From the sequence record NC_052658.1: a stretch of DNA of 64,000 nucleotides, one strand, 5' to 3'. The position numbers were made by a program, and so were the translations under genes. Positions 1,448-57,405 of the stretch are shown one piece after another (the first letter of the stretch is position 1; each line of letters starts with the position of its first letter). Under the pieces are notes generated by a model. The model was not told the DNA's origin, did not search any database, and saw only the letters and a list, made by a program, of their open reading frames with translations. This DNA is from Escherichia phage nepoznato.

Positions 1448-2320
1448 ATGAAAGATTTGTACCAAGATGTTTTTTCTTTTTTAGATCGCACTTCAGAAAC
1501 ATACACTAGAGAGAATGCAAACAAACCTTCCCACCTTGTTAACACGCACAGGGATCTCTTGGCGGGGATTTTAAGCAAACATATGGCAATGACACAGATA
1601 CTGCCAAAAAACTTGTCAGAATGGCATACAGAAGGTTTTGGACATATTCACGACTTGGATTATCTGCTCTCTCCTCTTACAAACTGTTGTCTTGTTAATT
1701 ATCAAGATATGTTAGAGAATGGTTTTAAGATCGGTGCTGCACAGATAGAAAAACCAAAATCTATTGGAGTAGCTACTACAGTGCTAACTCAAATCATCCA
1801 AGCTGTTGCCTCCAGTCAGTATGGAGGTCAGACGTGTGCGCACATTGATAAAGGTCTTAGTCCTTATGTTGAAGCCAGTTTCCTTAAAAACATGGAGATA
1901 ACCAAACGTCGCTACGGTTGTTATGCAAGGAAAGAAGCCCTAGAAATGACCGAACAAGATGTATATGACGCTATGCAAACTCTTTTGTATCAGGTTAACA
2001 CTTTAATGAGTGTTAATGGACAATCTCCTTTTATTACAATCAGTATGGGTCTGGATACCTCTGTTTTTGGCAGAATGATCACAGCTAACTATCTTAAAGT
2101 GCATAGTAACGGTCTAGGTAAAGATCATGTAACGCCTGTATTCCCTAAAGTTATTTTCTTTTTACAAGAAGGTGTTAACATGAAACCTAGTGATCCTAAC
2201 TACGACCTTAAGCAACAAGCTTTGGCATGTTGTGCTGATCGTATTTATCCAGATTTTATTTCTGTTCCTTTGAACAAAGAAGTTACGGGATCAGCAGATG
2301 GTACCGTTACGAGTATGGGT
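1448..2320 (+). CDS. nrdD: Anaerobic ribonucleoside-triphosphate reductase NrdD, exon 1
   Basis: Class III RNR N-terminal/catalytic region (e.g. KPKSIGVATTVLTQIIQAVASSQYGGQT, DPNYDLKQ). Exon ends after ...TSMG; the last exon base is T, as expected at a group I 5' splice site. The ORF as read runs on to a stop at 2327-2329. Confidence 0.8.
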
Positions 2321-3090
2321 AAACTATAACTGCTCATGTAAAATCTGCCTAAACGGGGGAACTCTCAACAGAGACAATCCCGTGCTAAACGTAACAGAAC
2401 TCCCAACACAGAAGAAGGGGGTACTGATATGAGAAAACAAATTCGTGATTTTGAAGGGTATGAAATTGACGAGCTTGGAAATGTTTATTGTACCAGGTAT
2501 AAGGATGAAAGAATCCTTCGCTCGTGGGAAGAAATAAACACAGGATACCAACTTGTCAGAATACGTAAAAACAAGAAAACTGTTTGCTTTCGGGTGCACA
2601 GACTTGTAGCTGAAGCGTTTTTACCCAATCCAGACAATTTACCTTATGTGAAGCATAAAGGTGACAATAGGAAAGACAACAGTGTATACAATCTTGAGTG
2701 GGGATCTTGTCCAGACAACACGCAAGAGGGTTACGATAATAACTGTTATGCTTTCTACACAAGGTGTCACAGTGTAAAAGCTACTCATAAGGCTACTGGT
2801 GAAGTTTTTTACTTTAAAAGTCTGAGATGTTGTGCTGACGCTTTAGGGTTGGACAGAAAAAGAATATCTGCAATCTTAAAACAAGGAGCACCAAATAATT
2901 ATGATTATGAGTTCTGTTACGAAATGCCTAACGACTAGCTGTGATGAATGTAGCAGCGTAGGGTGTAAGCCTATGACACCCCAAATGGTAGACATGCTTT
3001 AAGCATGAAGATATAGTCTGATCTGCATGGTGACATGCAGCAGCACGTAATGGTGCGGGAGTGGCCTTGCGAGCCACTTTGAACATAATG
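2321..3090 (+). mobile_element. Group I intron (T4 td/nrdD-like, IA2-type core) interrupting nrdD and carrying an HNH endonuclease ORF
   Basis: AAATCTGCCTAAACGGGGGAACTCTCAACAGAGACAATCCCGTGCTAAAC (about 2341-2390) closely matches the T4 td intron core as recalled; S-element-like AAGATATAGTCT at 3007-3018; intron ends in G (3090). Joining 2320 to 3091 gives SMG|CRSFL, matching E. coli NrdD PMGCRSFL. Exact boundaries are inferred, not verified. Confidence 0.7.
2429..2938 (+). CDS. HNH-family homing endonuclease (intron-encoded)
   Basis: ATG at 2429 with a GGGGG SD-like run upstream; HNH-type motif around VKHKGDNRKDNSVYNLEWGS; lies wholly inside the intron. Confidence 0.65.
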   Translation: MRKQIRDFEGYEIDELGNVYCTRYKDERILRSWEEINTGYQLVRIRKNKKTVCFRVHRLVAEAFLPNPDNLPYVKHKGDNRKDNSVYNLEWGSCPDNTQEGYDNNCYAFYTRCHSVKATHKATGEVFYFKSLRCCADALGLDRKRISAILKQGAPNNYDYEFCYEMPND

Positions 3091-4032
3091 TGTAGAAGTT
3101 TCTTGTCATACTATGCAACAGAGCAAGGAGAAAAATATGATGGACGATTCAACCTTGGAGTAGTTTCTATCAACTTGCCTCTGATTGCTGCGGAAGCGAG
3201 AAGTAAAGGAGAATCTTTCACCGATCTTCTTAATAAACATATGGAGATAGCCTACGATGCTCACATGCTACGTGTAAACCGTATCAGACATACCAAAGCA
3301 TCTGAAAACCCTATTCTTTTCATGGAAGGGGCTTTAGCGCGTTTAAATGCCAATGATGAAATTGGTGTTTTGTTTGAAGGTGGTTATGCTTCTATTAGTA
3401 TTGGTTATGTAGGTCTTGCCGAAGCTTTGGAAATCCTTTATCCAGAAGAAAAAGATAAAAAGGAACTTGGTAAAAACATTCTGCAACATATGAAAGATGT
3501 GTGTGCTGTGTTTAAAGAGCGATCTAAGCTGGCATTTAGTCTCTATGGAACTCCAGCAGAATCTTTGTGCTATAAGTTTGCAACAGCTTTAAATGAAAAA
3601 TACCCAGGTTTGGTAGAAAGAGACTATCTTACTAACTCTTTTCATCAACCTGTATGGTTGGTAACAAATCCTTTTGAAAAATGGGATTATGAAGCAGGTT
3701 TTGCACAGATTAGTAATGGTGGTAACATAAGTTATGTCGAAACACCAAACTTAAAGAATAACTTAGAAGCTTTGGAGACTTTAGTAGACTACGCTTATGA
3801 ACATATTCACTATTTTGGTATTAATCAGCCCGTGGATCAATGCTTTAAGTGTGGTTTTCATGGAGAATTTAAGGCAACGGCTAAAGGGTTTGAGTGTCCT
3901 GATTGTGGCAACCATGAAGAAGAAACTATTTCTGTAGTTAGACGTGTATCAGGGTATCTTTCTGCTCCTAATTCACGGCCTTATAACAAAGGTAAAATGC
4001 AGGAAGTTTTGCAAAGGGAGAAACATCTTTGA
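3091..4032 (+). CDS. nrdD: NrdD, exon 2 (glycyl-radical C-terminal part)
   Basis: CRSFL...GRFNLGVVSINLP, C-terminal zinc ribbon CFKCGFHGEF...CPDCGN and glycyl-radical motif RRVSGYL. The open frame begins at 3061 (GTG) but homology begins at 3091. Confidence 0.8.
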   Translation, partial: CRSFLSYYATEQGEKYDGRFNLGVVSINLPLIAAEARSKGESFTDLLNKHMEIAYDAHMLRVNRIRHTKASENPILFMEGALARLNANDEIGVLFEGGYASISIGYVGLAEALEILYPEEKDKKELGKNILQHMKDVCAVFKERSKLAFSLYGTPAESLCYKFATALNEKYPGLVERDYLTNSFHQPVWLVTNPFEKWDYEAGFAQISNGGNISYVETPNLKNNLEALETLVDYAYEHIHYFGINQPVDQCFKCGFHGEFKATAKGFECPDCGNHEEETISVVRRVSGYLSAPNSRPYNKGKMQEVLQREKHL

Positions 4033-4719: not shown

Positions 4720-5325
4720 ATGCAACATAGTGTAGTAGTCAACATGCCGAATAGTGGGGATAAATCTTTTGGTGTCCCTGCTAAAAAAGTGTGGAAAGCC
4801 CATTTTCATCTTACTTTATCTAACGTTAGTTCTGAAGAGTTGATGAAAGCAGCTAAGATTATTGGTGCCAAATGCACAACAATTGATTTACATCGGGATA
4901 CAAAGTCTCAACGTGATCGTATGTTAACAAAGTATCAAAGCGATCTCGACACTACTTTAATGTTGCAGTGTGTAGAAAAACTTGAGAATGCAGGTTTCAA
5001 TGTTGTTCGTTACAAACTGGAACGAATGTTTAAACATGTTGCCTGTGTTCTTTTCATGGATCTAAGTAAAGAAAATTATGGAGAAGTTCACATTAAGACT
5101 TCAGCAAGTGATCCCGAAGTAGAAACAAACTTCTTCCGTATTTCTTCTAATGCTGAAGAAATTGATTACCGATTTTATAATGCTCGCTTATATTCCGCAG
5201 AAGATAAGTTGCGTTTCAATGAAGCGTATGATATGCTCTTGAACAGTGGGATACAGATAAAAGGCTACCACATAGAACAAGTGGTAGTGGACAGTAATCT
5301 TAACTTAGACGCATGGTGGGCTTAA
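4720..5325 (+). CDS. Hypothetical protein; weak 2H-phosphoesterase-like HxTx motif
   Basis: GAGGAG SD; one HLTL (H-x-T-x) motif near residue 30; a second canonical motif is not clear (VHIKTS). Confidence 0.45.
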   Translation: MQHSVVVNMPNSGDKSFGVPAKKVWKAHFHLTLSNVSSEELMKAAKIIGAKCTTIDLHRDTKSQRDRMLTKYQSDLDTTLMLQCVEKLENAGFNVVRYKLERMFKHVACVLFMDLSKENYGEVHIKTSASDPEVETNFFRISSNAEEIDYRFYNARLYSAEDKLRFNEAYDMLLNSGIQIKGYHIEQVVVDSNLNLDAWWA

Positions 5326-5326
5326 T

Positions 5327-5983
5327 ATGACTATTAAACATATCTCTTTTGATGTATGGAACACACTGATCACAGCAAACTCCAATTACGCAGACATGCG
5401 AGCCTGGACTATCGCAAAATATGGAGATATTACGGAAGTGGAAGCAAGAGCAGCTTATAAGAAGATCAAAAAGGAACTGGATAATGCAGCACTTCAAGGC
5501 AAAGCCGAGTGTGCAGCATACGCCTGGGAAAGACTTGGTTCTGAACTTGGGATAACACCTTGGAAGTCTGCAAAGCTTCGTTTCGAGTGTGAACAGTGGT
5601 TCCTTAAGTTTCCACCACACGTAGCCGTGGATCTGCCGATGTACTTGCTGTATCTTTCGGGACGTTATGATTTGAGTATTAAGAGCAATACCAACTTTAT
5701 ATCAGGGGATATCCTGCGTCGTGCTTGTAAGTTTGATAGTTGGAATTGTTTTGAGTTCACCCATTTCTCGGATGAAGCTTTACTTTGTAAACCAGATCCG
5801 CGATTCTTTGCTCGCACGCTCACATATTCTCCGATCCCTCTGTTAGGGCACGAAGTATTGCACGTAGGCGATAGTGAAGAATATGATGGAAAATGTGTTG
5901 ACTTAGGATTTAACTTCTGTCATATTAAGAACCCTAACGACTTACTAGAGAAACTTAAAAGAGGAGAAATTGTAAATGCGTAA
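5327..5983 (+). CDS. HAD-superfamily hydrolase-like protein
   Basis: N-terminal ISFDVWNTLI (haloacid-dehalogenase-type DxYGT-like motif I variant) and C-terminal HVGDSEEYDG (motif IV-like). Confidence 0.5.
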   Translation: MTIKHISFDVWNTLITANSNYADMRAWTIAKYGDITEVEARAAYKKIKKELDNAALQGKAECAAYAWERLGSELGITPWKSAKLRFECEQWFLKFPPHVAVDLPMYLLYLSGRYDLSIKSNTNFISGDILRRACKFDSWNCFEFTHFSDEALLCKPDPRFFARTLTYSPIPLLGHEVLHVGDSEEYDGKCVDLGFNFCHIKNPNDLLEKLKRGEIVNA

Positions 5984-22278: not shown

Positions 22279-23073
22279 TTGAGCAAGTTGAACACACTTG
22301 ATCAATATTACACTAACCCCGCTTATGCGGGGTTCTTATGTGATAAGATCAAAGAAATTTTTGGAGAGGAAGCTAACTACGTAGAACCATCTGCGGGAGA
22401 AGGGGCTTTCTCTTCTTGTTTTAAAAACATAACTTCTTTTGATATTGACCCTAAGTTTGAAGATTGTATTGAGGCAGATTTTTTAGCTCAATCTGTTGAG
22501 TCTGTTGGCAGTGTAACTGCTTTTGTCGGTAATCCTCCGTTTGGAAAAAATGCTAGTCTTGCCATTAAGTTCTTTAACCATTGTGCTGAAATGTTGGATA
22601 ACGAAGGTGGTATTTGTTTTATCTTGCCTCGCACATTTCAAAAAATCTTTTTTGCACACAAACTAAATCCCCACATGCATCTTCTTTACGAAGAAGAATG
22701 TCCAAAAGGATCTTTTATTCTTCATGGAGAACCTTGGGATGTTCCTTGTGTATTCCAGATATGGATTAAACGCAACGAGAAGCGTTCTCCCGTTGTTTTA
22801 GGAGAAAATCGACTATTCGTATTAGGCAACAGTAAAGACTACGACATAGCCGTTAGGAGAGCGGGAGCAAGTGCAGGTAAAGTGTTATCAGAAGAGGATT
22901 CTTTATCTGAAGCATCTACCTATTTTTTAAAAGCCTTGACTTCTGATCTTAAAACGCGTATCATTGAGGCTTACCCGTTACTTAAAGCTGAAGCTAGTAA
23001 AACTGCGGGAGTAAGAAGTTTAAGTTTAAAAGAACTTCAGTGGGTTCTGGAGAACATTAGAAAGGAGGAATAG
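22279..23073 (+). CDS. N6-adenine DNA methyltransferase (NPPF motif)
   Basis: Motif I-like EPSAGEGAF and motif IV GNPPFG; TTG start with AAGGAGG SD. Confidence 0.6.
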   Translation: MSKLNTLDQYYTNPAYAGFLCDKIKEIFGEEANYVEPSAGEGAFSSCFKNITSFDIDPKFEDCIEADFLAQSVESVGSVTAFVGNPPFGKNASLAIKFFNHCAEMLDNEGGICFILPRTFQKIFFAHKLNPHMHLLYEEECPKGSFILHGEPWDVPCVFQIWIKRNEKRSPVVLGENRLFVLGNSKDYDIAVRRAGASAGKVLSEEDSLSEASTYFLKALTSDLKTRIIEAYPLLKAEASKTAGVRSLSLKELQWVLENIRKEE

Positions 23074-26000
23074 TGAGTAAGTTTACATGGGATATTGAAG
23101 CAAACGGATTGTTGAATAATGATACTATTGATTATTTAGCTAGTCCTTATCGTCTCAAAGACACATTTCAAATGCACTGTATTGTCTTAGAGAACCATGA
23201 AACAGGAGAAATAGTAGCTTTCCACGATGGCCCTAAATACATTTTTGATGGTCGTCCTTATGAAGAGTCAGATGATAAATATACATATGTTCTTAAAGAA
23301 TATGTGGCGCAAGATTACACACATTTTCAACTAAAAGATTTCCCAGATTTTATTAATCATGAAGGTTATTTTAAAGACAAGCCTGAATATTTGGTTGAAA
23401 TGGCTGTGGCACACAACGGTATCAACTATGACTGGTTGGCTACAAAACTGTTTTATGGATTAGATTACAGTGTTAAATATAACACGTGGGGTAAAAGCAA
23501 GGTAAAACTTATTGACTCCTTAATTTTGAGTAAAGTGTTAAACCCAGATCGAAAGATTGAGGGCAAATCAGGACATAGTTTGGCAGCACTTTCTCGAAAG
23601 GCAGGCGGGGATGTAAAAATAGATTTCCGTAAAGAGATTCCAGAAGAAGATCGATTTAAGACTTTTGCTGCGGATATGCTTTATTACTGTATCTATGATA
23701 ACAAAGCCAACACAAGTGTATATAATTACCTCATGGAAGAATGGGGTGATTATGATAAATGGGAAGGTCCATTTGAACTTGAACAACGTGTAGCAGACAT
23801 TATCACGCGCCAGGAACACCGTGGGTTTGCTTTTAACATGAAGCAAGCAGAAGAGAACCTTGCTTTTTTGGATGCAGAAATGGAACGTCTTCGTTTACTC
23901 GTTGAGCCTATTTTGCCACCTAAACCAGCAACAAAAGGTTATCTTAAAGCTTTTATTCCGCCTAAATTGCAAATTAAAAAGAACCTCGAACCAACTAACC
24001 ATATGATCAATTTTGCTAAAAAACATGATGGTCATTTGGAAGAGAGGGATGGCGATTGGTGGTTAGTTATGTTGGGGAAAGAGTGGAAACTGCCAGTTGC
24101 AGCAGATGAGCCTTTGTGTGATCCTAATATCCCTGCAACATTGAACGATACAACCCATATTAAAAACTGGCTTGTAGGATTAGGTTGGGTACCGTCTGAA
24201 TATAAAGATAAAGACTTGACTCTTAAATCTGGCACCAAGATTAAAAAGAGTGAGGAAGAACTTCAGAAAGGTATTCGAGCTTACATTGAGCAAACTCTAT
24301 CTTCTAATTTTTGTCAGGATCGTTGTGATCATCTGGAGTGCACACCGGAAACCTTGGAAAGGAAGATTCAAGAGCGTATAGCAAAAGGTAAAGGTCGCGG
24401 TCTTAAAGTATTGACTAACCCATGTTTTACCAAAGGTCAGGAAAAAGAAATTTGTCCTAACCTGCAAGCTTTGGGTGAGAAATTTCCTTATGCTACACAG
24501 ATTGTAGAATACTTAACGTATAAACACCGTAGGAACTCTATTTTAGGTGGTGGTGCCGATTGGGAAGAAGACGAAGAAGATCAAGAATACAACAAAGGTT
24601 TCTTGGCAGCAGTTCGTGCAGATGGACGTATACCTACGCCAGCGGCTACATGCGATGCAGCAACCTCTCGTATGAAGCATAGGTCTGTAGCCAATATTCC
24701 TCGTGTTACCTCTTTGTTTGGATGGCAGATGCGTAACCTGTTTGGTGTAGAGGTTCCTAAATACTTCCAGATTGGTTATGACTTTGATTCATTAGAGGCG
24801 AAGATTGAGTCGCATTATACGTGGAGATATGATAATCCTGATCATGCTTACTGTAATGCACTTCTGTTAGAAAAACCAAACGATGTGCATACTATGATGG
24901 CAAAACATATTACTGATATTATTGGACGTAAGTTTGAACGTGGTCCTGCTAAGAGCGTTAAATACGGTTGTGTACCTGTAGATAATACGGAAGTGTTAAC
25001 AAGAACGGGTTGGAAGAAACGTAAAGATCTTTTTGTAGGGGATGAAGTTTTATCTTATAATACTCACACCGCTCTTTACGAATATACCCCTATTCTTAAG
25101 CTGTGGGACTATAACGATGCAGAAGTTGTCTCTCTCGGTAACAAGTGGTTCAAAGTAGAAGTTACTAACGATCATATGTGGATTAACGCACAGAGAAAAA
25201 CTATGCGATCAGATGGTAACAATGTTAAGTATATGCAAGTGGAGCGTAGATCTACAGAGGATTTAAACTCGGAGTCAAACATAATTGCAGCAGGGCGATC
25301 TGGTGTGGTGTCTACTCTAACAGTGGAAGAAGGTCGTTTCTTAGGCTGGCTTCTTTCGGATGGCTACTATAAGTGGTCTGGCAAAGCCAGAAATAAAGTA
25401 ATGGGTATTACAGTCACGGTAGATCAAGATGAGAAAAAATTCTTAGAAGAAGCACGTGAGGCTGTGGGAGATATCTTCACATTTGACGAGTATGTATCTG
25501 GAACGATGCATTCATTACGTCCTAATAAGAGTCAGTTTAGGGAATTTTTGACTAAATGTGGCGTTGAAGTGGGTCAAAATAAGCACGAAGTGGACTGGTC
25601 TACATTAATTGCTAATCAAGGTCAAGCTGTGTTGGAAGCATTCTTAGAGGCATTCTGGATGGCAGATGGTCATAAGCGTCCAAACGGCAGTCTTGTTATC
25701 CGTCAAAAGAAAGGTAAGATTAGCGACGCTGTTTCTTTGGCTATCAATATGACAGGTAATATTGCGTATGGTTCTGTTCAAAAAGATGGCATGTTAACGT
25801 TGGCAATCAATAACGGACAAACTATTTCAGGACAGAGGTTGACAAAAGCTTTTTCACGAGTAACAGATGTATTCTGTATCTCAACCAAGAATGAATCTTT
25901 TGTTATGCGTCAGAATGGTTTTATCACGTTGACAGGTAACTGCACGTACGGCGCTCAAGCAGACAAGGTTGCTAAAACAATTGGTAGCGATAAATACACA

Positions 26001-26642
26001 GGGCAACTGGTGTTCGATGCTTTCTGGGAAGCTGCATTCCCACTGGCGCGTCTTAAAGAACGTTTAAACGATTTCTGGGTTAAGACTGGTAAACAGTATG
26101 TTTTGGGTATTGACGGTCGTAAGGTTCCTACTCGTTCTGCTCACGCGATTCTTAACTCTCTGTTCCAAAGTGGTGGGGTTATCTGTGCTAAACGTGCAAT
26201 GGTTATTTATGACGACATGATCGAAGAAGAAGGGCTAAGTGTTGACTTCTTTAAAGATGACTGGAAGAATAAAGACTTCGTGCAACAAATGATTGCATAT
26301 CACGATGAAGCCCAGCTTGAAGTTTCTCGTAGCCTTGTAGAATTTAAATGGTTTTCACCTGAATCATTAGGTTGGAAGAAAGTAGACGATCCTGAAGAAC
26401 AAAAGAAAATTGATAAAGAATGCCTTGCTAAAGTTGAAGAATGGAAGCATAATAAGGAAAAAGAGACAGGGCAAATTTGGGCTAACATTCATGAATCTCC
26501 CAAAGGTGGATGGTTTACAGCCTATAGTCGGGCAGGTGAACTTGCTGCTTTAGCTGTTACTAAGGCTGGAGAATTTTACAATCTTAATGTTCAGCTTACT
26601 GCCGGATATGATGTGGGTAACTCCTGGGCGAGCTGCCATTAG
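23073..26642 (+). CDS. Family A DNA polymerase with 3'-5' exonuclease, interrupted by an in-frame intein
   Basis: Exo I WDIEANGL; Pol A motif A IGYDFDSLEAKI; motif B RGPAKSVKYG|[intein]|CTYGAQADKVAKTIG; motif C YHDEAQLEV; GTG start with AAAGGAGG SD. Confidence 0.8.
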   Translation: MSKFTWDIEANGLLNNDTIDYLASPYRLKDTFQMHCIVLENHETGEIVAFHDGPKYIFDGRPYEESDDKYTYVLKEYVAQDYTHFQLKDFPDFINHEGYFKDKPEYLVEMAVAHNGINYDWLATKLFYGLDYSVKYNTWGKSKVKLIDSLILSKVLNPDRKIEGKSGHSLAALSRKAGGDVKIDFRKEIPEEDRFKTFAADMLYYCIYDNKANTSVYNYLMEEWGDYDKWEGPFELEQRVADIITRQEHRGFAFNMKQAEENLAFLDAEMERLRLLVEPILPPKPATKGYLKAFIPPKLQIKKNLEPTNHMINFAKKHDGHLEERDGDWWLVMLGKEWKLPVAADEPLCDPNIPATLNDTTHIKNWLVGLGWVPSEYKDKDLTLKSGTKIKKSEEELQKGIRAYIEQTLSSNFCQDRCDHLECTPETLERKIQERIAKGKGRGLKVLTNPCFTKGQEKEICPNLQALGEKFPYATQIVEYLTYKHRRNSILGGGADWEEDEEDQEYNKGFLAAVRADGRIPTPAATCDAATSRMKHRSVANIPRVTSLFGWQMRNLFGVEVPKYFQIGYDFDSLEAKIESHYTWRYDNPDHAYCNALLLEKPNDVHTMMAKHITDIIGRKFERGPAKSVKYGCVPVDNTEVLTRTGWKKRKDLFVGDEVLSYNTHTALYEYTPILKLWDYNDAEVVSLGNKWFKVEVTNDHMWINAQRKTMRSDGNNVKYMQVERRSTEDLNSESNIIAAGRSGVVSTLTVEEGRFLGWLLSDGYYKWSGKARNKVMGITVTVDQDEKKFLEEAREAVGDIFTFDEYVSGTMHSLRPNKSQFREFLTKCGVEVGQNKHEVDWSTLIANQGQAVLEAFLEAFWMADGHKRPNGSLVIRQKKGKISDAVSLAINMTGNIAYGSVQKDGMLTLAINNGQTISGQRLTKAFSRVTDVFCISTKNESFVMRQNGFITLTGNCTYGAQADKVAKTIGSDKYTGQLVFDAFWEAAFPLARLKERLNDFWVKTGKQYVLGIDGRKVPTRSAHAILNSLFQSGGVICAKRAMVIYDDMIEEEGLSVDFFKDDWKNKDFVQQMIAYHDEAQLEVSRSLVEFKWFSPESLGWKKVDDPEEQKKIDKECLAKVEEWKHNKEKETGQIWANIHESPKGGWFTAYSRAGELAALAVTKAGEFYNLNVQLTAGYDVGNSWASCH
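24969..25940 (+). mobile_element. Intein (324 aa) with a LAGLIDADG-type homing endonuclease domain, inserted in Pol A motif B
   Basis: Begins with Cys (CVPVDNTEVLTRTG), block B TNDHMW, LAGLIDADG-like LGWLLSDGYY and EAFWMADGHK, ends ...FITLTGN followed by extein Cys; removal rejoins KYG + CTYGA into a canonical motif B. Confidence 0.7.
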
Positions 26643-26659
26643 TTAACTCATTGTTTTAT

Positions 26660-26677
26660 AAGGGGCTTCTGCCCCTT
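26660..26677 (+). terminator. Hairpin after the DNA polymerase (weak terminator)
   Basis: AAGGGGC-TTCT-GCCCCTT followed by TATAGG; short T-tract. Confidence 0.35.
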
Positions 26678-26690
26678 TATAGGAGGAGAT

Positions 26691-53805: not shown

Positions 53806-55746
53806 TTAACCACCAGTGTTAGATTGTCCACTTAGAGTTGAAAGAGACAAACGTTGGAAAATGCTATTTCCGCTATTTTGAATTCTTGCATCAAGAATAT
53901 TTCCAAACTCTGAAGAAGGGCTGATCGTAACTTTGATAAGATCACTTGGTATTGCTACCGTATTCTCAACAACAGGTTGATTACGAGCCAAACTTACGTT
54001 AGGTGTATAGGCTGATTCACGTAAATCTTCAAGAGGATTACCAAATCCAAAAGCACGTGTCCTTGTTTGTTCTCCTCTCCACATACGACCAATATCTTGT
54101 GTATCAATACCTGTTAAATTGTACAACCAATCTGCTACAGGATTGCTGTCTCCACTTTGCGTTGCCTCGTATGCTTTTTGTGCCATAGATTTATTAGGAT
54201 CTGTGTTATCTCCGAATGTATCTGGGAATGTTTCTTTAAGCCAATTGGTAAAAGATCCGAAACCATCTCCCAATTCTTTAGCAAAACCTCCTAATTGAAC
54301 TGTTGTCTTACCGAGTTCTTCACCTAAATCTTTGGCAAACTGATCTAGCACTTTAACATTATCCAACCAAGAATCATCTTTAGGTAAGGCTTTCACAAAA
54401 CCCTCTAAGAAGTGGTTCTGCATACCTTGACCTACAAGCTGAACTGTTGCAGCAAAACGAGTAAACTCTTTAGAAGCATCTATTTGTTCTTGAGTTAATG
54501 TTGCACCTGTTCTTTGAAGCATTTTCAATACTTCATTATACCCTTCGCCGTTTTTACTAAACATACGTTGGTAGTGCATAAGGTCATCACCAAGGTTTTC
54601 AAGAAGTCGCCCGATTTGAGCAGAGTTCATACCTCGACGCTCACCTTCATTAACAGTAGCCTGAATAAAAGCTAAAGGATCGTTCTGTAAAGGTTTAAGC
54701 TGTTCTGGATTCCATCCAAACAAGTTCATAATGTCATTTATGCCATTATCACCGCCTTTCCACTTCCCTTCTTTCTCATTCCATTTTGAGGCTAAAACTG
54801 TATTACCAAGACGTTCACGAACGTCTTTAATATTATCTATTGACTTAATAATATTTGCAGAGTCTACACCGTTCTGTTCACCCCAAGCTGTCATTGCCAA
54901 AATAGCGTTGGCGTTTGTCTGAACGTTTTCAGCACCACGACTTACAAGTTTAATTCTTTCGTTAGTATTCATCAACGTGTTACCAACTACAGAACCACCT
55001 GCAAACAGCCCAGCACCTATTAAAGAGGATGCAATCATGCGTGGATTAAGACCTGCTGCACCTTCTTTTAATTGTCCATATCGACGATCACGATCACGTT
55101 TTTGTTGAGCTAATTCACGCTTACGGTTGCGTTCTATATCTCTAAGTTCACGATTTCGCATACGTATACGCATTTTAGCTTCTGCTTCTAGCTCTCTACG
55201 AATACGGCGACGACCGCGAACCTCGTCTTCTATTTCAGCATTCTTTTCACGATGAGATCTGCGTAAGGCATCTAACTGGTGAGCAAGAGCTTGGTTCATA
55301 CGTTGAAGAGTTATTTCACCCTTTTTGTATTGCTCTACAGCTTTACCCATAACGTCTCTAGCTTCTTGCATAGCGCCAGGACTGGCTTTACTAAATGCTC
55401 TTGCTCGATAGTTAAAGTTCTGCAAACGAAGATTACCTAAGTCTTCCCTACGTGCTGCTGCTTTAGCTTCGCGTTCAGCAGCTTTACGAGCTTTTTCTTC
55501 TTCTCTTCCTTGCGGGGTTTTAGGAGTTCTAGGTCTGCCAGATCCGCCTACAGGAGCACCCGCTCCAGCGGGAGTAGGTGCTCGCATAGGTTTTTGACTT
55601 TGAGTTTGAGCTTTCTTAAGTTCACGCTCAATCTCTTTCATTTGTTGTCTAAACTTGGTCATGTTCATAGTGGGTTGCATTTTATTTGCAAACTTCTGAA
55701 CACTCAACACGGCATCTTTTGCTTCCTTGAGACTGTTCTTGTCCAC
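53806..55746 (-). CDS. Tail tape measure protein
   Basis: 646 aa; long N-terminal Arg/Glu-rich coiled coil, central hydrophobic segment MIASSLIGAGLFAGGSVVG; downstream of the frameshifted chaperone. Start is GTG with an SD almost adjacent, so the exact start is uncertain. Confidence 0.65.
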   Translation of the reverse strand: MDKNSLKEAKDAVLSVQKFANKMQPTMNMTKFRQQMKEIERELKKAQTQSQKPMRAPTPAGAGAPVGGSGRPRTPKTPQGREEEKARKAAEREAKAAARREDLGNLRLQNFNYRARAFSKASPGAMQEARDVMGKAVEQYKKGEITLQRMNQALAHQLDALRRSHREKNAEIEDEVRGRRRIRRELEAEAKMRIRMRNRELRDIERNRKRELAQQKRDRDRRYGQLKEGAAGLNPRMIASSLIGAGLFAGGSVVGNTLMNTNERIKLVSRGAENVQTNANAILAMTAWGEQNGVDSANIIKSIDNIKDVRERLGNTVLASKWNEKEGKWKGGDNGINDIMNLFGWNPEQLKPLQNDPLAFIQATVNEGERRGMNSAQIGRLLENLGDDLMHYQRMFSKNGEGYNEVLKMLQRTGATLTQEQIDASKEFTRFAATVQLVGQGMQNHFLEGFVKALPKDDSWLDNVKVLDQFAKDLGEELGKTTVQLGGFAKELGDGFGSFTNWLKETFPDTFGDNTDPNKSMAQKAYEATQSGDSNPVADWLYNLTGIDTQDIGRMWRGEQTRTRAFGFGNPLEDLRESAYTPNVSLARNQPVVENTVAIPSDLIKVTISPSSEFGNILDARIQNSGNSIFQRLSLSTLSGQSNTGG

Positions 55747-56088
55747 CTTAAACGTAACAACGTTACTAATTTTTGCATTGTATTCGGGAAGATTCGTTAA
55801 TTCTTCCCCGCTTTCGCTGCTGTAAGTTTCCCTACAGATTAGACTATATCTTCATCTACATGAGACGCTTTGCGCTTCGGACCACTTGATCCTACTCCCT
55901 TTCGGGATAGTCGTTGAACCTTCTCCTAAACGGAGCTTGGCTGCTGATTACCCAATCCACACACTTTTCAAACCGTGGCTTCATCTTTCGATTCGCAGTG
56001 GTAGTGTGGCTCTAAGGGTGTCCCAGCAATTCACAAAGTTGATAATGTGTATCACTACACATTAGCCCCTAAGTTAAGGCGTTAATTT
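55747..56088 (-). other. 342-nt non-coding spacer between the zinc-ribbon/T5orf172 ORF and the tape measure gene
   Basis: No ORF on either strand in an otherwise tightly packed operon; contains short hairpins (e.g. TCCC-TTTC-GGGA near 55905-55916). Confidence 0.4.
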
Positions 56089-57405
56089 CTAACAAAGTAT
56101 TCCTCCATTATCTTCAAAGATTTTCATAATGTTTTCCAGGTTGTAGATATAAGTTGTCTCTGTCCACCCGTCTGGAATGTCTTGTTGGGAGAAAACTCCG
56201 CAAGGTAAAACGTCTTTCACTTCTTTCTCTGCGGTGCGACAAGCTGCCACAGTTTCAAATCTATATAACTTAAACTTGTGTAGTTTATATTTAGCAAGTC
56301 GATTTTGTTGCCTTATTCTTATTCTTGGATTTTTTGTTATTCCAAATTTAAGACCAATAATACCAAGACCCTCATCTTCCACCAGGTGAATATAAGCATA
56401 GGTCTGATTTTTACCTCTACATTCTGGACAACCTTGTTCACCGTGTATAAAGTTTGTGATTGATATTTGTTGGATGCCGTGGGTTTTGCAAGAGTATTGA
56501 AAAGAACTCTTATTTGATTTGTAATCAATAAGCTTTACAAAAGTGTATCCACGTTCCTCACAAACCTTTTTCAATTGTTCTTTCATGTCGGTTTCTGGTT
56601 TCGGTTTGTGTCCGTGACAAGTAATACAACGGTTTCCCGATAACAAACCAAAAACAGTCATCTCTATCTCACCACCATGTTCTTCGCAAAAAACTACGAC
56701 TTTTGAGCGATTACCTTTAAACTTCCCAATCCAACGAATAAAGCTATAAGGTGTTTCAGTGTTAATTCGTAAAATATATTGCTCTTCAGTGTATACATAC
56801 CTTGAAGAACAACGACAAGGTTTAGCACCCCTCAAAAGATTAGACTTCATGCCTTCAAAGATACCAGAGCAAAGTCCAGCTTTTACAAACTTATCATTTG
56901 AACATGTAGGGCAGGTAACAAACCAATAAGGACTCCAACCATTTTTATCTTTTCTTTCAGATTTGGTAAAAGTAGTCCCATCTTCAAAGAAGCCTGTTGC
57001 CAAGAAATCTTCAGCTTTTACTAAATCTTTTCTTTTCCTGGGATCTACACACTTTGGACAACCCACACCCTTTCGAATCGTTGAAATTATACCAGTGTTC
57101 CATTCCCCATGTTCAGGACAAACACAACGGATTTTTGTAGAACTTGAGCCTGTGTATTCTTTACTCCAACCTAAAAAAGTATATCCTAAAGCTTCTGTAG
57201 CTCTCTTTGCTACGATGTAGGCTTGATCTTCACTTAGTTTTGGACATTTTGAGCAACCACAAGGTGTTTGCCTACCAAAGTTACTTTTGAACATGCTGAA
57301 AGGTTGAGGATAAAGTTCTTTATCTTCTGAACAGATAGAGCATGTAACCAAAATTTTGTCTGGATTGTTTGGGTCTTGACCTATAATATTTAAAACGCCA
57401 CGCAT
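56089..57405 (-). CDS. Zinc-ribbon repeat protein with C-terminal T5orf172/GIY-YIG-like domain (putative homing endonuclease-like selfish gene)
   Basis: Repeated CxxC modules (CSICSEDK, CGCSKCPK, CPEHG...CPKC, CPTCSN, CITCHGH, CPECRG); C-terminal YAYIHLVEDEGLGIIGLKFGITKNPRIRIRQQNR...DGWTE; GGAG SD; inserted between the chaperone and the tape measure gene. Confidence 0.5.
   Translation of the reverse strand: MRGVLNIIGQDPNNPDKILVTCSICSEDKELYPQPFSMFKSNFGRQTPCGCSKCPKLSEDQAYIVAKRATEALGYTFLGWSKEYTGSSSTKIRCVCPEHGEWNTGIISTIRKGVGCPKCVDPRKRKDLVKAEDFLATGFFEDGTTFTKSERKDKNGWSPYWFVTCPTCSNDKFVKAGLCSGIFEGMKSNLLRGAKPCRCSSRYVYTEEQYILRINTETPYSFIRWIGKFKGNRSKVVVFCEEHGGEIEMTVFGLLSGNRCITCHGHKPKPETDMKEQLKKVCEERGYTFVKLIDYKSNKSSFQYSCKTHGIQQISITNFIHGEQGCPECRGKNQTYAYIHLVEDEGLGIIGLKFGITKNPRIRIRQQNRLAKYKLHKFKLYRFETVAACRTAEKEVKDVLPCGVFSQQDIPDGWTETTYIYNLENIMKIFEDNGGILC

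Follow-up and report, generated by a model that had tools for sequence, protein, structure and literature searches.

A probable LAGLIDADG intein in motif B of the DNA polymerase of Escherichia phage nepoznato, with the footprint of recent transfer between phage genera

The family A (T7-like) DNA polymerase precursor of Escherichia phage nepoznato is encoded at positions 23073 to 26642 on the plus strand of a 64,000-nucleotide stretch of sequence record NC_052658.1, here called the window. Its open reading frame of 1189 residues contains an in-frame insert of 324 residues (972 nucleotides, positions 24969 to 25940, plus strand), which runs from a cysteine, Cys1, to an asparagine, Asn324. The insert is very probably a bona fide intein with a nested two-motif LAGLIDADG homing endonuclease, mobile at present or until very recently. 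It divides motif B, the O-helix at the active site of the polymerase, into two parts.

The polymerase gene is 99.2% identical to that of Escherichia phage nieznany and 98.3-98.7% identical to those of phages ukendt and AV126, as found by megablast against 50,697 phage records. All three, like the phage of the window, are members of Phapecoctavirus (Stephanstirmvirinae, phAPEC8-like E. coli myophages). The unspliced reading frame scores 30.8 bits against the Pfam family DNA_pol_A, below the threshold of 34.3 bits, and the match ends at residue 634, which is the junction. Upon deletion of residues 633-956 in silico, the score becomes 50.8 bits, above the threshold, in a single stretch (residues 503-764) that spans the junction. 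The C-terminal half of the spliced sequence matches T7 DNA polymerase with an E-value of 6.6e-20 (phmmer), well outside what chance would give, and the alignment crosses the junction: RGPAKSVKYG↓CTYGAQADKV, where the arrow here and below marks the point of insertion, is aligned to the T7 O-helix RDNAKTFIYGFLYGAGDEKI, the counterpart of the rejoined RGPAKSVKYG↓CTYGAQ being RDNAKTFIYGFLYGAG. With DFDSLEAK at residue 570 as its motif A, RGPAKSVKYGCTYG as its motif B and a Pfam score above the threshold, the spliced protein is a member of family A. The T7 alignment thus places the intein between residues 10 and 11 of motif B (RxxxKxxxYG↓xxYG), and the split motif (RGPAKSVKYG and CTYG) occupies positions 24939 to 25952 on the plus strand. 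This point is equivalent to that between Gly527 and Phe528 of the T7 enzyme. An earlier note, made by a model from the sequence alone, had described a 324-residue insert at 24969-25940 that starts with Cys, ends in TGN↓C and lies inside motif B, so that its removal rejoins KSVKYG and CTYGAQ. The coordinates are exact to the base, and the T7 alignment agrees with the placement. The base composition of the insert (GC fraction of about 0.38-0.43) is the same as that of the host gene and is therefore uninformative as to a foreign origin.

Most relatives match the gene in two pieces with 72-73% coverage, whose span is exactly 2598 nucleotides, that is, 3570 minus 972. The polymerase of phage ESCO13, which has 865 residues, aligns to the window protein with one clean 324-residue gap and is 98.2% identical to it elsewhere, as the comparison with intein-free homologues proposed in the earlier note had anticipated. 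The insertion is thus in frame and absent from homologues, and its removal restores a motif of the host protein, as is found for inteins. Among about 135 Stephanstirmvirinae records, counted as those whose polymerase C-extein shares 60% identity or more with the C-extein of the window, the insert is present in 10 (at least 99% identical; tblastn) and cleanly absent from the rest. This is the opposite of the 324 residues being an integral domain in homologous polymerases, which the note had named as an observation that would speak against an intein.

Because the reading frame is continuous, the sequence alone is also compatible with a protein that retains the 324 residues as an integral accessory domain, or with an in-frame group I intron carrying an endonuclease reading frame; public records, moreover, label the entire frame simply as DNA polymerase. 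Either arrangement is extremely improbable, as the insert would break the O-helix at the equivalents of T7 Gly527 and Phe528, is precisely absent from close relatives, and combines a predicted Hint plus LAGLIDADG fold with all of the splice-junction residues. A group I intron at the insert was rejected: no Rfam match is found at E≤1 across positions 24500-26300, although Rfam does detect, with 92.9 bits, a true group I intron in another part of the window. An in-frame intron is therefore excluded.

The residues expected of an intein are found at both ends of the insert and in between, all of the following features being on the plus strand. Cys1, the N-terminal nucleophile, is encoded by TGT at 24969-24971 and opens splicing block A (CVPVDNTEVLTRTGW, 24969 to 25013). 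Block B (FKVEVTNDHMWIN, 25149 to 25187) contains the sequence VEVTNDHMW, in which the TxxH signature reads T66-N-D-H69; Thr66, His69 and Trp71 occupy positions B:7, B:10 and B:12. Block F (VTDVFCISTKNESFVMRQ, 25860 to 25913) has Cys303 at F:4 (25875-25877). Block G, GFITLTGN (25917 to 25940), is composed of Thr322 (G:5), the penultimate Gly323 (G:6) and Asn324 (G:7) with the residues preceding them. The insert ends in ACA GGT AAC (Thr-Gly-Asn, 25932-25940), Asn324 being the codon AAC at 25938-25940, and is followed by TGC (25941 to 25943) for the +1 Cys, with which the C-extein begins, so that a C-terminal Asn is joined to a +1 Cys as in inteins. The first LAGLIDADG motif, FLGWLLSDGYY (residues 124-134, positions 25338 to 25370), contains the catalytic Asp131, and the second, FLEAFWMADGHK (residues 225-236, positions 25641 to 25676), contains the catalytic Asp233. 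Both motifs thus keep the catalytic Asp (in FLGWLLSDG and LEAFWMADG) that is expected of a two-motif endonuclease, and A232, D233 and G234 are invariant in an alignment of eight sequences. The TxxH of block B and the two LAGLIDADG motifs that the earlier note had read as LGWLLSDGYY and EAFWMADGHK were all located in the translation.

The structure of the insert predicted by AlphaFold2, built on the eight-sequence alignment, has a mean predicted local distance difference test score (pLDDT) of 83.2 and a predicted template modelling score (pTM) of 0.84. Beta-rich N-terminal and C-terminal parts flank an alpha/beta core, and the two LAGLIDADG motifs coincide with helices 119-129 and 219-233. Upon comparison of the model with the Protein Data Bank (PDB) using Foldseek, matches 1 to 16 are all endonuclease-containing inteins with a probability of 1.00, pointing to a Hint fold. 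The best of these are TliVMA (6.4e-16), PhoVMA, PI-SceI, PI-PfuI and PI-PkoII, with E-values from 9e-8 downwards. They are followed by the monomeric LAGLIDADG endonucleases I-Tsp061I and I-DmoI (E=3e-5 to 7e-4) and then by a mini-intein that matches the Hint part. The predicted secondary structure of residues 119-280 fits the pseudo-dimeric alpha-beta-beta-alpha-beta-beta-alpha fold of LAGLIDADG endonucleases. A phmmer search of the PDB sequences finds PI-PkoII with E=0.0012, and both LAGLIDADG motifs are aligned.

The intein belongs to a very large family, which is visible only in an exhaustive HMMER search; a word-indexed protein search yielded 7 relatives. Among 1.84 billion cluster representatives, 1764 proteins match in phmmer with an E-value of 1e-3 or lower; for 609 of them it is at most 1e-10 and for 47 at most 1e-30. 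Nearly all of the matches are internal segments of proteins of about 1000 residues. Conservation was counted in the 118 full-length intein copies present among the best 150 of the 1764 proteins. Cys at position 1, Thr at B:7, His at B:10, Cys at F:4 and Asn at G:7 are found in 118/118 copies, Gly at the penultimate position G:6 in 117/118, Trp at B:12 in 116/118 and Thr at G:5 in 114/118. The +1 residue is always Cys (53 copies), Ser (39) or Thr (26). The window intein has the full family core, consisting of C1, T66, H69, W71, C303, T322, G323, N324 and C+1.

Motif B of PolA hosts 80 of the 118 copies (68%). The insertion point is after residue 10 in 58 of them, as in the window, after residue 9 in 13, after residue 7 in 7, and after residues 6 and 11 in one copy each. 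The family therefore uses at least five neighbouring points in the 14-residue motif, each with its own Cys, Ser or Thr at +1. The copy in Pseudomonas phage KIL1, which is 32% identical to the window intein, is inserted after residue 6. Copies situated outside motif B are found, for example, in the context ...PFY↓TFxRKN... and in a primase-like motif, GGGY(Q/H)↓(C/S)YW.

Three metagenomic proteins (P0071, P0108 and P0149) contain two copies of the family each. Free-standing full-length homologues, 28-31% identical to the window intein, are found in Vibrio phage VPMCC14 (locus L005, 2974-4044) and as proteins P0004 and P0005. These have lost Cys1, the His of block B, the Cys at F:4 and the terminal Asn, and keep both LAGLIDADG motifs; the VPMCC14 copy begins just past the stop codon of the polymerase gene. 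From their sequences they look like intein-derived free-standing homing endonucleases, analogous to yeast HO. The TerL intein of Gordonia phage GordTnk2 (locus L011, 901-1872) has the full signature of Cys1, Trp/Cys/Thr and Gly-Asn. The intein of the gp3 nucleotidyltransferase of Mycobacterium phage LinStu (locus L010, 901-1893) has Cys1, the Cys at F:4 and Gly-Asn, without the Trp and the Thr. The signature thus extends, in a graded manner, to actinophage inteins that are treated as class 1 in the literature.

Phage phiWec187 has the same motif B intein, as have four records labelled "Campylobacter phage" (A150, C3, A145 and A110a); all of these belong to Justusliebigvirus, the phi92-like sister genus. 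The inteins of phiWec187 and A150 differ from that of the window at 1-2 of 972 nucleotides (99.8-99.9% identity); the polymerase exteins of the window and of these phages are 75.7-78.5% identical in nucleotides. The block of about 99.9% identity with phiWec187 and A150, which we interpret as a co-conversion tract, extends from position 24741 to 25960 on the plus strand (gene positions 1669-2888) and thus reaches 228 nucleotides upstream and 20 nucleotides downstream of the intein. Past the 3' edge of the block, each sequence reverts to the backbone of its own genus: the window is identical to the intein-less ESCO13, and phiWec187 is identical to PaulScherrer. The window and ESCO13 are 94-100% identical over most of the gene. 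In the roughly 200 nucleotides just upstream of the intein their identity is 71-84%, and of the 15 bases immediately downstream of it 6 are different. This footprint has the pattern expected of double-strand-break repair at the insertion site with asymmetric co-conversion, suggesting homing by the endonuclease of the intein itself.

In both genera the empty alleles read KSVKYG↓ITYGAQ, with Ile (ATC or ATT) at the +1 position. The intein-bearing alleles have TGC (Cys) at this position, together with several synonymous changes. As judged from this comparison, the +1 Cys is not native to the polymerase and appears to have been imported by co-conversion. In the spliced polymerase the O-helix would therefore bear an Ile-to-Cys scar, and a product of homing can splice only if at least this codon has been co-converted.

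The A150 record (MG065639) and those of C3, A145 and A110a are marked UNVERIFIED, are unannotated and name Campylobacter jejuni as the host. In the polymerase gene there is essentially no difference between them and the E. coli phage phiWec187, and the host label is doubtful.

The intein might also be a vertical passenger that splices but has an inactive endonuclease, its near-identity across genera having arisen by ordinary recombination of co-infecting phages. The genomes of the subfamily are mosaic, and the presence of the intein in only 10 of about 135 related polymerase records has the consequence that it is not sweeping to fixation. Such a passenger is nevertheless improbable. Asp131 and Asp233 are kept, and the endonuclease domain is conserved down to relatives of 30% identity. 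In two different backbones the intein lies exactly at the centre of the exchanged segment, whose flanks are short and asymmetric, as expected of double-strand-break repair at the insertion site and not of random recombination. In addition, the endonuclease of a related intein, that of the recombination directionality factor (RDF) of mycobacteriophage Bethlehem, is toxic in E. coli. The endonuclease of the window intein is thus probably active, considering its pair of catalytic Asp residues, the footprint of recent transfer and the toxicity of its Bethlehem relative.

Several results weigh against the insert being a mobile intein. The Pfam profiles LAGLIDADG_3 (E=0.0023) and Hint (E=0.09) match the insert below threshold, and an NCBIfam scan of the insert gives no relevant match. 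Identification therefore relies on structure prediction, the PDB searches and the comparative data. Class 1 inteins typically have Asp at F:4 and a penultimate His, where the window intein has Cys303 and Gly323. The Asp and the His are common rather than obligatory in class 1, as the Bethlehem RDF intein, which splices, also has Cys and Gly at these positions. The near-identity across genera is a sign of recent transfer and not a proof that the intein's own endonuclease was responsible. The earlier note had proposed a check with hidden Markov models (HMMs) of the Hint and LAGLIDADG domains; since the HMM libraries barely detect the element, this check alone would have looked negative. The weak detection, the non-canonical catalytic signature, the non-native +1 Cys and the homing footprint across genera all go beyond what the note had described.

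The closest experimentally tested relative is the intein of Bethlehem gp51 (RDF / metallophosphoesterase), likewise a phage intein, with 317 residues and a nested LAGLIDADG endonuclease. It shares Cys1, the His at B:10, the Cys at F:4 (VWC) and the C-terminal Thr-Gly-Asn (HLTGN↓S) with the window intein. The two sequences align with 26% identity over a stretch that starts at the second LAGLIDADG motif and takes in blocks F and G (BLASTP, E=5e-6). The Bethlehem intein is assigned to class 1. In E. coli its splicing goes to completion and its endonuclease is toxic, and a His in place of the penultimate Gly (mutation G316H) slows splicing (Kelley et al. 2016, PMC5050341). It differs from the window intein in its host protein and phage lineage, in having Val at B:12 and Ser at +1, and in its low overall similarity.

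The solved archaeal and yeast inteins PI-PkoII, PI-PfuI, PI-SceI and TliVMA have the same architecture of a Hint domain interrupted by a two-motif LAGLIDADG endonuclease, and they provide its best matches in sequence (PI-PkoII) and in fold. PI-PkoII, an intein endonuclease from a family B polymerase of Thermococcus, shares with the window intein a DNA polymerase as its host. However, the hosts of these inteins are family B polymerases or V-ATPases, they have Asp in block F and a penultimate His, and they are only 8-16% identical in sequence to the window intein, which is smaller. Judging from its size and model, the window intein lacks the extra DNA-recognition region of PI-SceI.

The class 3 inteins, represented by MP-Be DnaB, MchDnaB1, MsmDnaB1 and AceL NrdHF, resemble the window intein in their phage association and in the WCT triplet at B:12, F:4 and G:5, which has identical spacing. 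This triplet (Trp B:12, Cys F:4 and Thr G:5) defines class 3, together with the absence of a nucleophile at position 1. In the window intein the triplet is complete (Trp71, Cys303 and Thr322), and the 21-residue spacing of Cys303 and Asn324 is equal to that of Cys124 and Asn145 in the crystallised MchDnaB1 intein. The window intein departs from class 3 in its Cys1 and its Thr at B:7, both of them invariant, in its +1 Cys and in its penultimate Gly, and the profile search of the PDB shows no specific affinity for the class 3 inteins of DnaB1.

A class 1 pathway initiated by Cys1 is favoured as the probable route of splicing. The residue required at position 1 of a class 1 intein (Cys, Ser or Thr) is present and invariant, and its role as the initiator is putative. 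Cys1 and the Thr at B:7 are invariant in the family down to about 25% identity, which argues that they are used, and class 1 is also where the Bethlehem RDF intein, the closest relative to have been tested, is placed. Splicing by the class 3 route, which would leave Cys1 retained for some other purpose, for example for scissile-bond strain, as a redox switch or as part of a relay, is a serious though less likely alternative. In this route Cys303, activated by His69 and Thr322, would attack the N-terminal junction, forming a branched thioester in block F from which the N-extein would pass to Cys+1. The full WCT triplet, the MchDnaB1 spacing and the invariant Cys at F:4 all agree with such a route, as do the matches to the class 3 AceL NrdHF split intein (6zgq), which were obtained with the family profile and with the Hint portion of the predicted structure alike.

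The occupant of position 1 argues the other way. True class 3 inteins carry varied non-nucleophilic residues at this position, in contrast to the Cys found in every one of the 118 family copies, although Tori et al. (2010) list 3 of the 37 WCT inteins in InBase as having Ser1 or Cys1. A later census of 1701 class 3 inteins left out sequences with Cys1 by construction. On the side of the class 3 route, such splicing in a WCT intein with an N-terminal nucleophile was reportedly observed by Tori and Perler in 2011. The Thr at B:7 is invariant as in class 1, whereas its counterpart in the class 3 MP-Be DnaB intein, Ser62, is dispensable. The +1 residue is Cys in the window intein but almost always Ser or Thr in class 3, where Bvi IcmO is the sole known case with Cys. 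The Hint profile of the family, upon comparison with the PDB, matches the class 1 mini-intein Spl DnaX (3.6e-8) and the atypical class 3 AceL NrdHF intein (1.5e-7). It does not prefer the class 3 inteins of DnaB1, for which E=0.07-0.5, to those of class 1.

In the class 1 pathway the polymerase would be translated whole as a 1189-residue precursor. The Hint domain (residues ~1-105 and ~285-324) would excise the 324 residues and join ...KSVKYG to CTYGAQ..., producing an 865-residue polymerase with an intact motif B and the junction sequence SVKYGCTYGAQADK (...SVKYGCTYGAQ...). An N-S acyl shift at Cys1 would be followed by transfer to Cys+1 and by cyclisation of Asn324, assisted without a penultimate His, while Cys303 would stand in for the usual Asp of block F. 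The endonuclease of the free intein would then cut intein-less alleles in mixed infections, at an empty site that is approximately GTTAAATACGGG↓ATCACTTATGGTGCA. Repair from the intein-bearing allele would copy the intein together with about 200-230 nucleotides of extein upstream and about 15-20 nucleotides downstream, the latter including the TGC codon of the +1 nucleophile.

The hallmarks of classes 1 and 3 are thus combined in one family. Class 3 inteins have been proposed to have arisen from a phage-encoded class 1 progenitor. Ideas of their divergent and of their convergent origin compete (Beyer et al. 2020, PMC7664689). It is conceivable, though unlikely, that the family is a living phage-encoded class 1 progenitor of class 3 inteins, or that its members splice by a relay from Cys1 to Cys303 to Cys+1. 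In that event the substitution C1A might by itself switch the intein to class 3 splicing, and this conversion would be a direct test of divergent versus convergent origin. On this question Tori and Perler are said to have taken, in 2011, the position opposed to that of Beyer et al. The family, centred on motif B of PolA, offers a convenient E. coli-compatible system for studying the origin of class 3 splicing.

The polymerase gene has a second intein site. A different intein of 245 residues is present in the gene in 35 records (phi92, PaulScherrer, ESCO5 and others). Its insertion point, ESHY↓CWRY, comes just behind motif A and lies 50 codons upstream of that of the motif B intein. In PaulScherrer (MZ501100) it lies at positions 3001-3738 of the locus examined (L003), and it is annotated as an intein in this record and in SD2. 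Both inteins are hosted by the same polymerase gene family in the same subfamily, Stephanstirmvirinae, and are 32% identical over 80% of the window intein. The phi92-type intein has the same catalytic signature (CVP..., DHRW, VWC and ITITGN↓C) but differs in its site, its length and its single LAGLIDADG-like motif. None of 92 records (92 places) has both inteins, as was checked directly for phiWec187 and PaulScherrer. The codon that corresponds to the +1 Cys of the phi92-type intein is that of Thr583 in the window (24819 to 24821, plus strand), 150 nucleotides upstream of the motif B intein and within the putative co-converted tract. Every motif B intein allele examined has Thr, not Cys, at this motif-A-proximal site. 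These sequences would fit a competition in which one intein displaces or excludes the other.

In nieznany an HNH endonuclease gene is situated directly downstream of the polymerase gene (positions 5100-5678 of the locus examined, L002). It is absent from the window (26643-26690), ukendt and ESCO13, and as far as the sequences indicate it is a second, independent mobile-element polymorphism at the polymerase locus.

The element is ordinary in kind, as LAGLIDADG inteins in phage replication proteins are well known and the sister intein is already annotated in GenBank; current understanding is not overturned. The window intein itself is currently unannotated. None of the 10 public records that carry it has an intein annotation: the nieznany copy of the gene is labelled "DNA polymerase I", and the labels in use are this one, "putative DNA polymerase/3'-5' exonuclease domain" and "hypothetical protein". 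Intein-containing precursor is the annotation called for in the polymerases of the window, nieznany, ukendt, AV126, phiWec187 and the A150 group; standard HMM libraries miss the element. The literature searched, which did not include subscription journals, describes neither a motif B intein in any phage polymerase of family A nor the family with Cys1, WCT and Gly as such. No Phapecoctavirus intein was found described either, the single match being a note in the BASEL methods that inteins were annotated. The locus would be a clean natural case of intein homing between phage genera, with a co-conversion tract that is asymmetric, can be measured, brings the +1 nucleophile along and overwrites the site of a second intein 150 nucleotides away.

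Other putative mobile elements are found in the window. The gene for anaerobic ribonucleotide reductase, nrdD (1448 to 4032, plus strand), is split into reading frames at 1448 to 2329 and 3061 to 4032, between which lies a 169-residue reading frame (2429 to 2938) resembling a homing endonuclease. The same layout is annotated in nieznany. Rfam has no intron match to the nrdD gap at the gathering threshold, and the split is either an undetected intron or a fractured gene. The group I intron mentioned above is complete (RF00028, 92.9 bits, E=1.4e-22; Rfam) and is located at 55820 to 56088 on the minus strand, between a Cys-rich reading frame of 438 residues (56089 to 57405) and a tape-measure-like reading frame (53806 to 55746).

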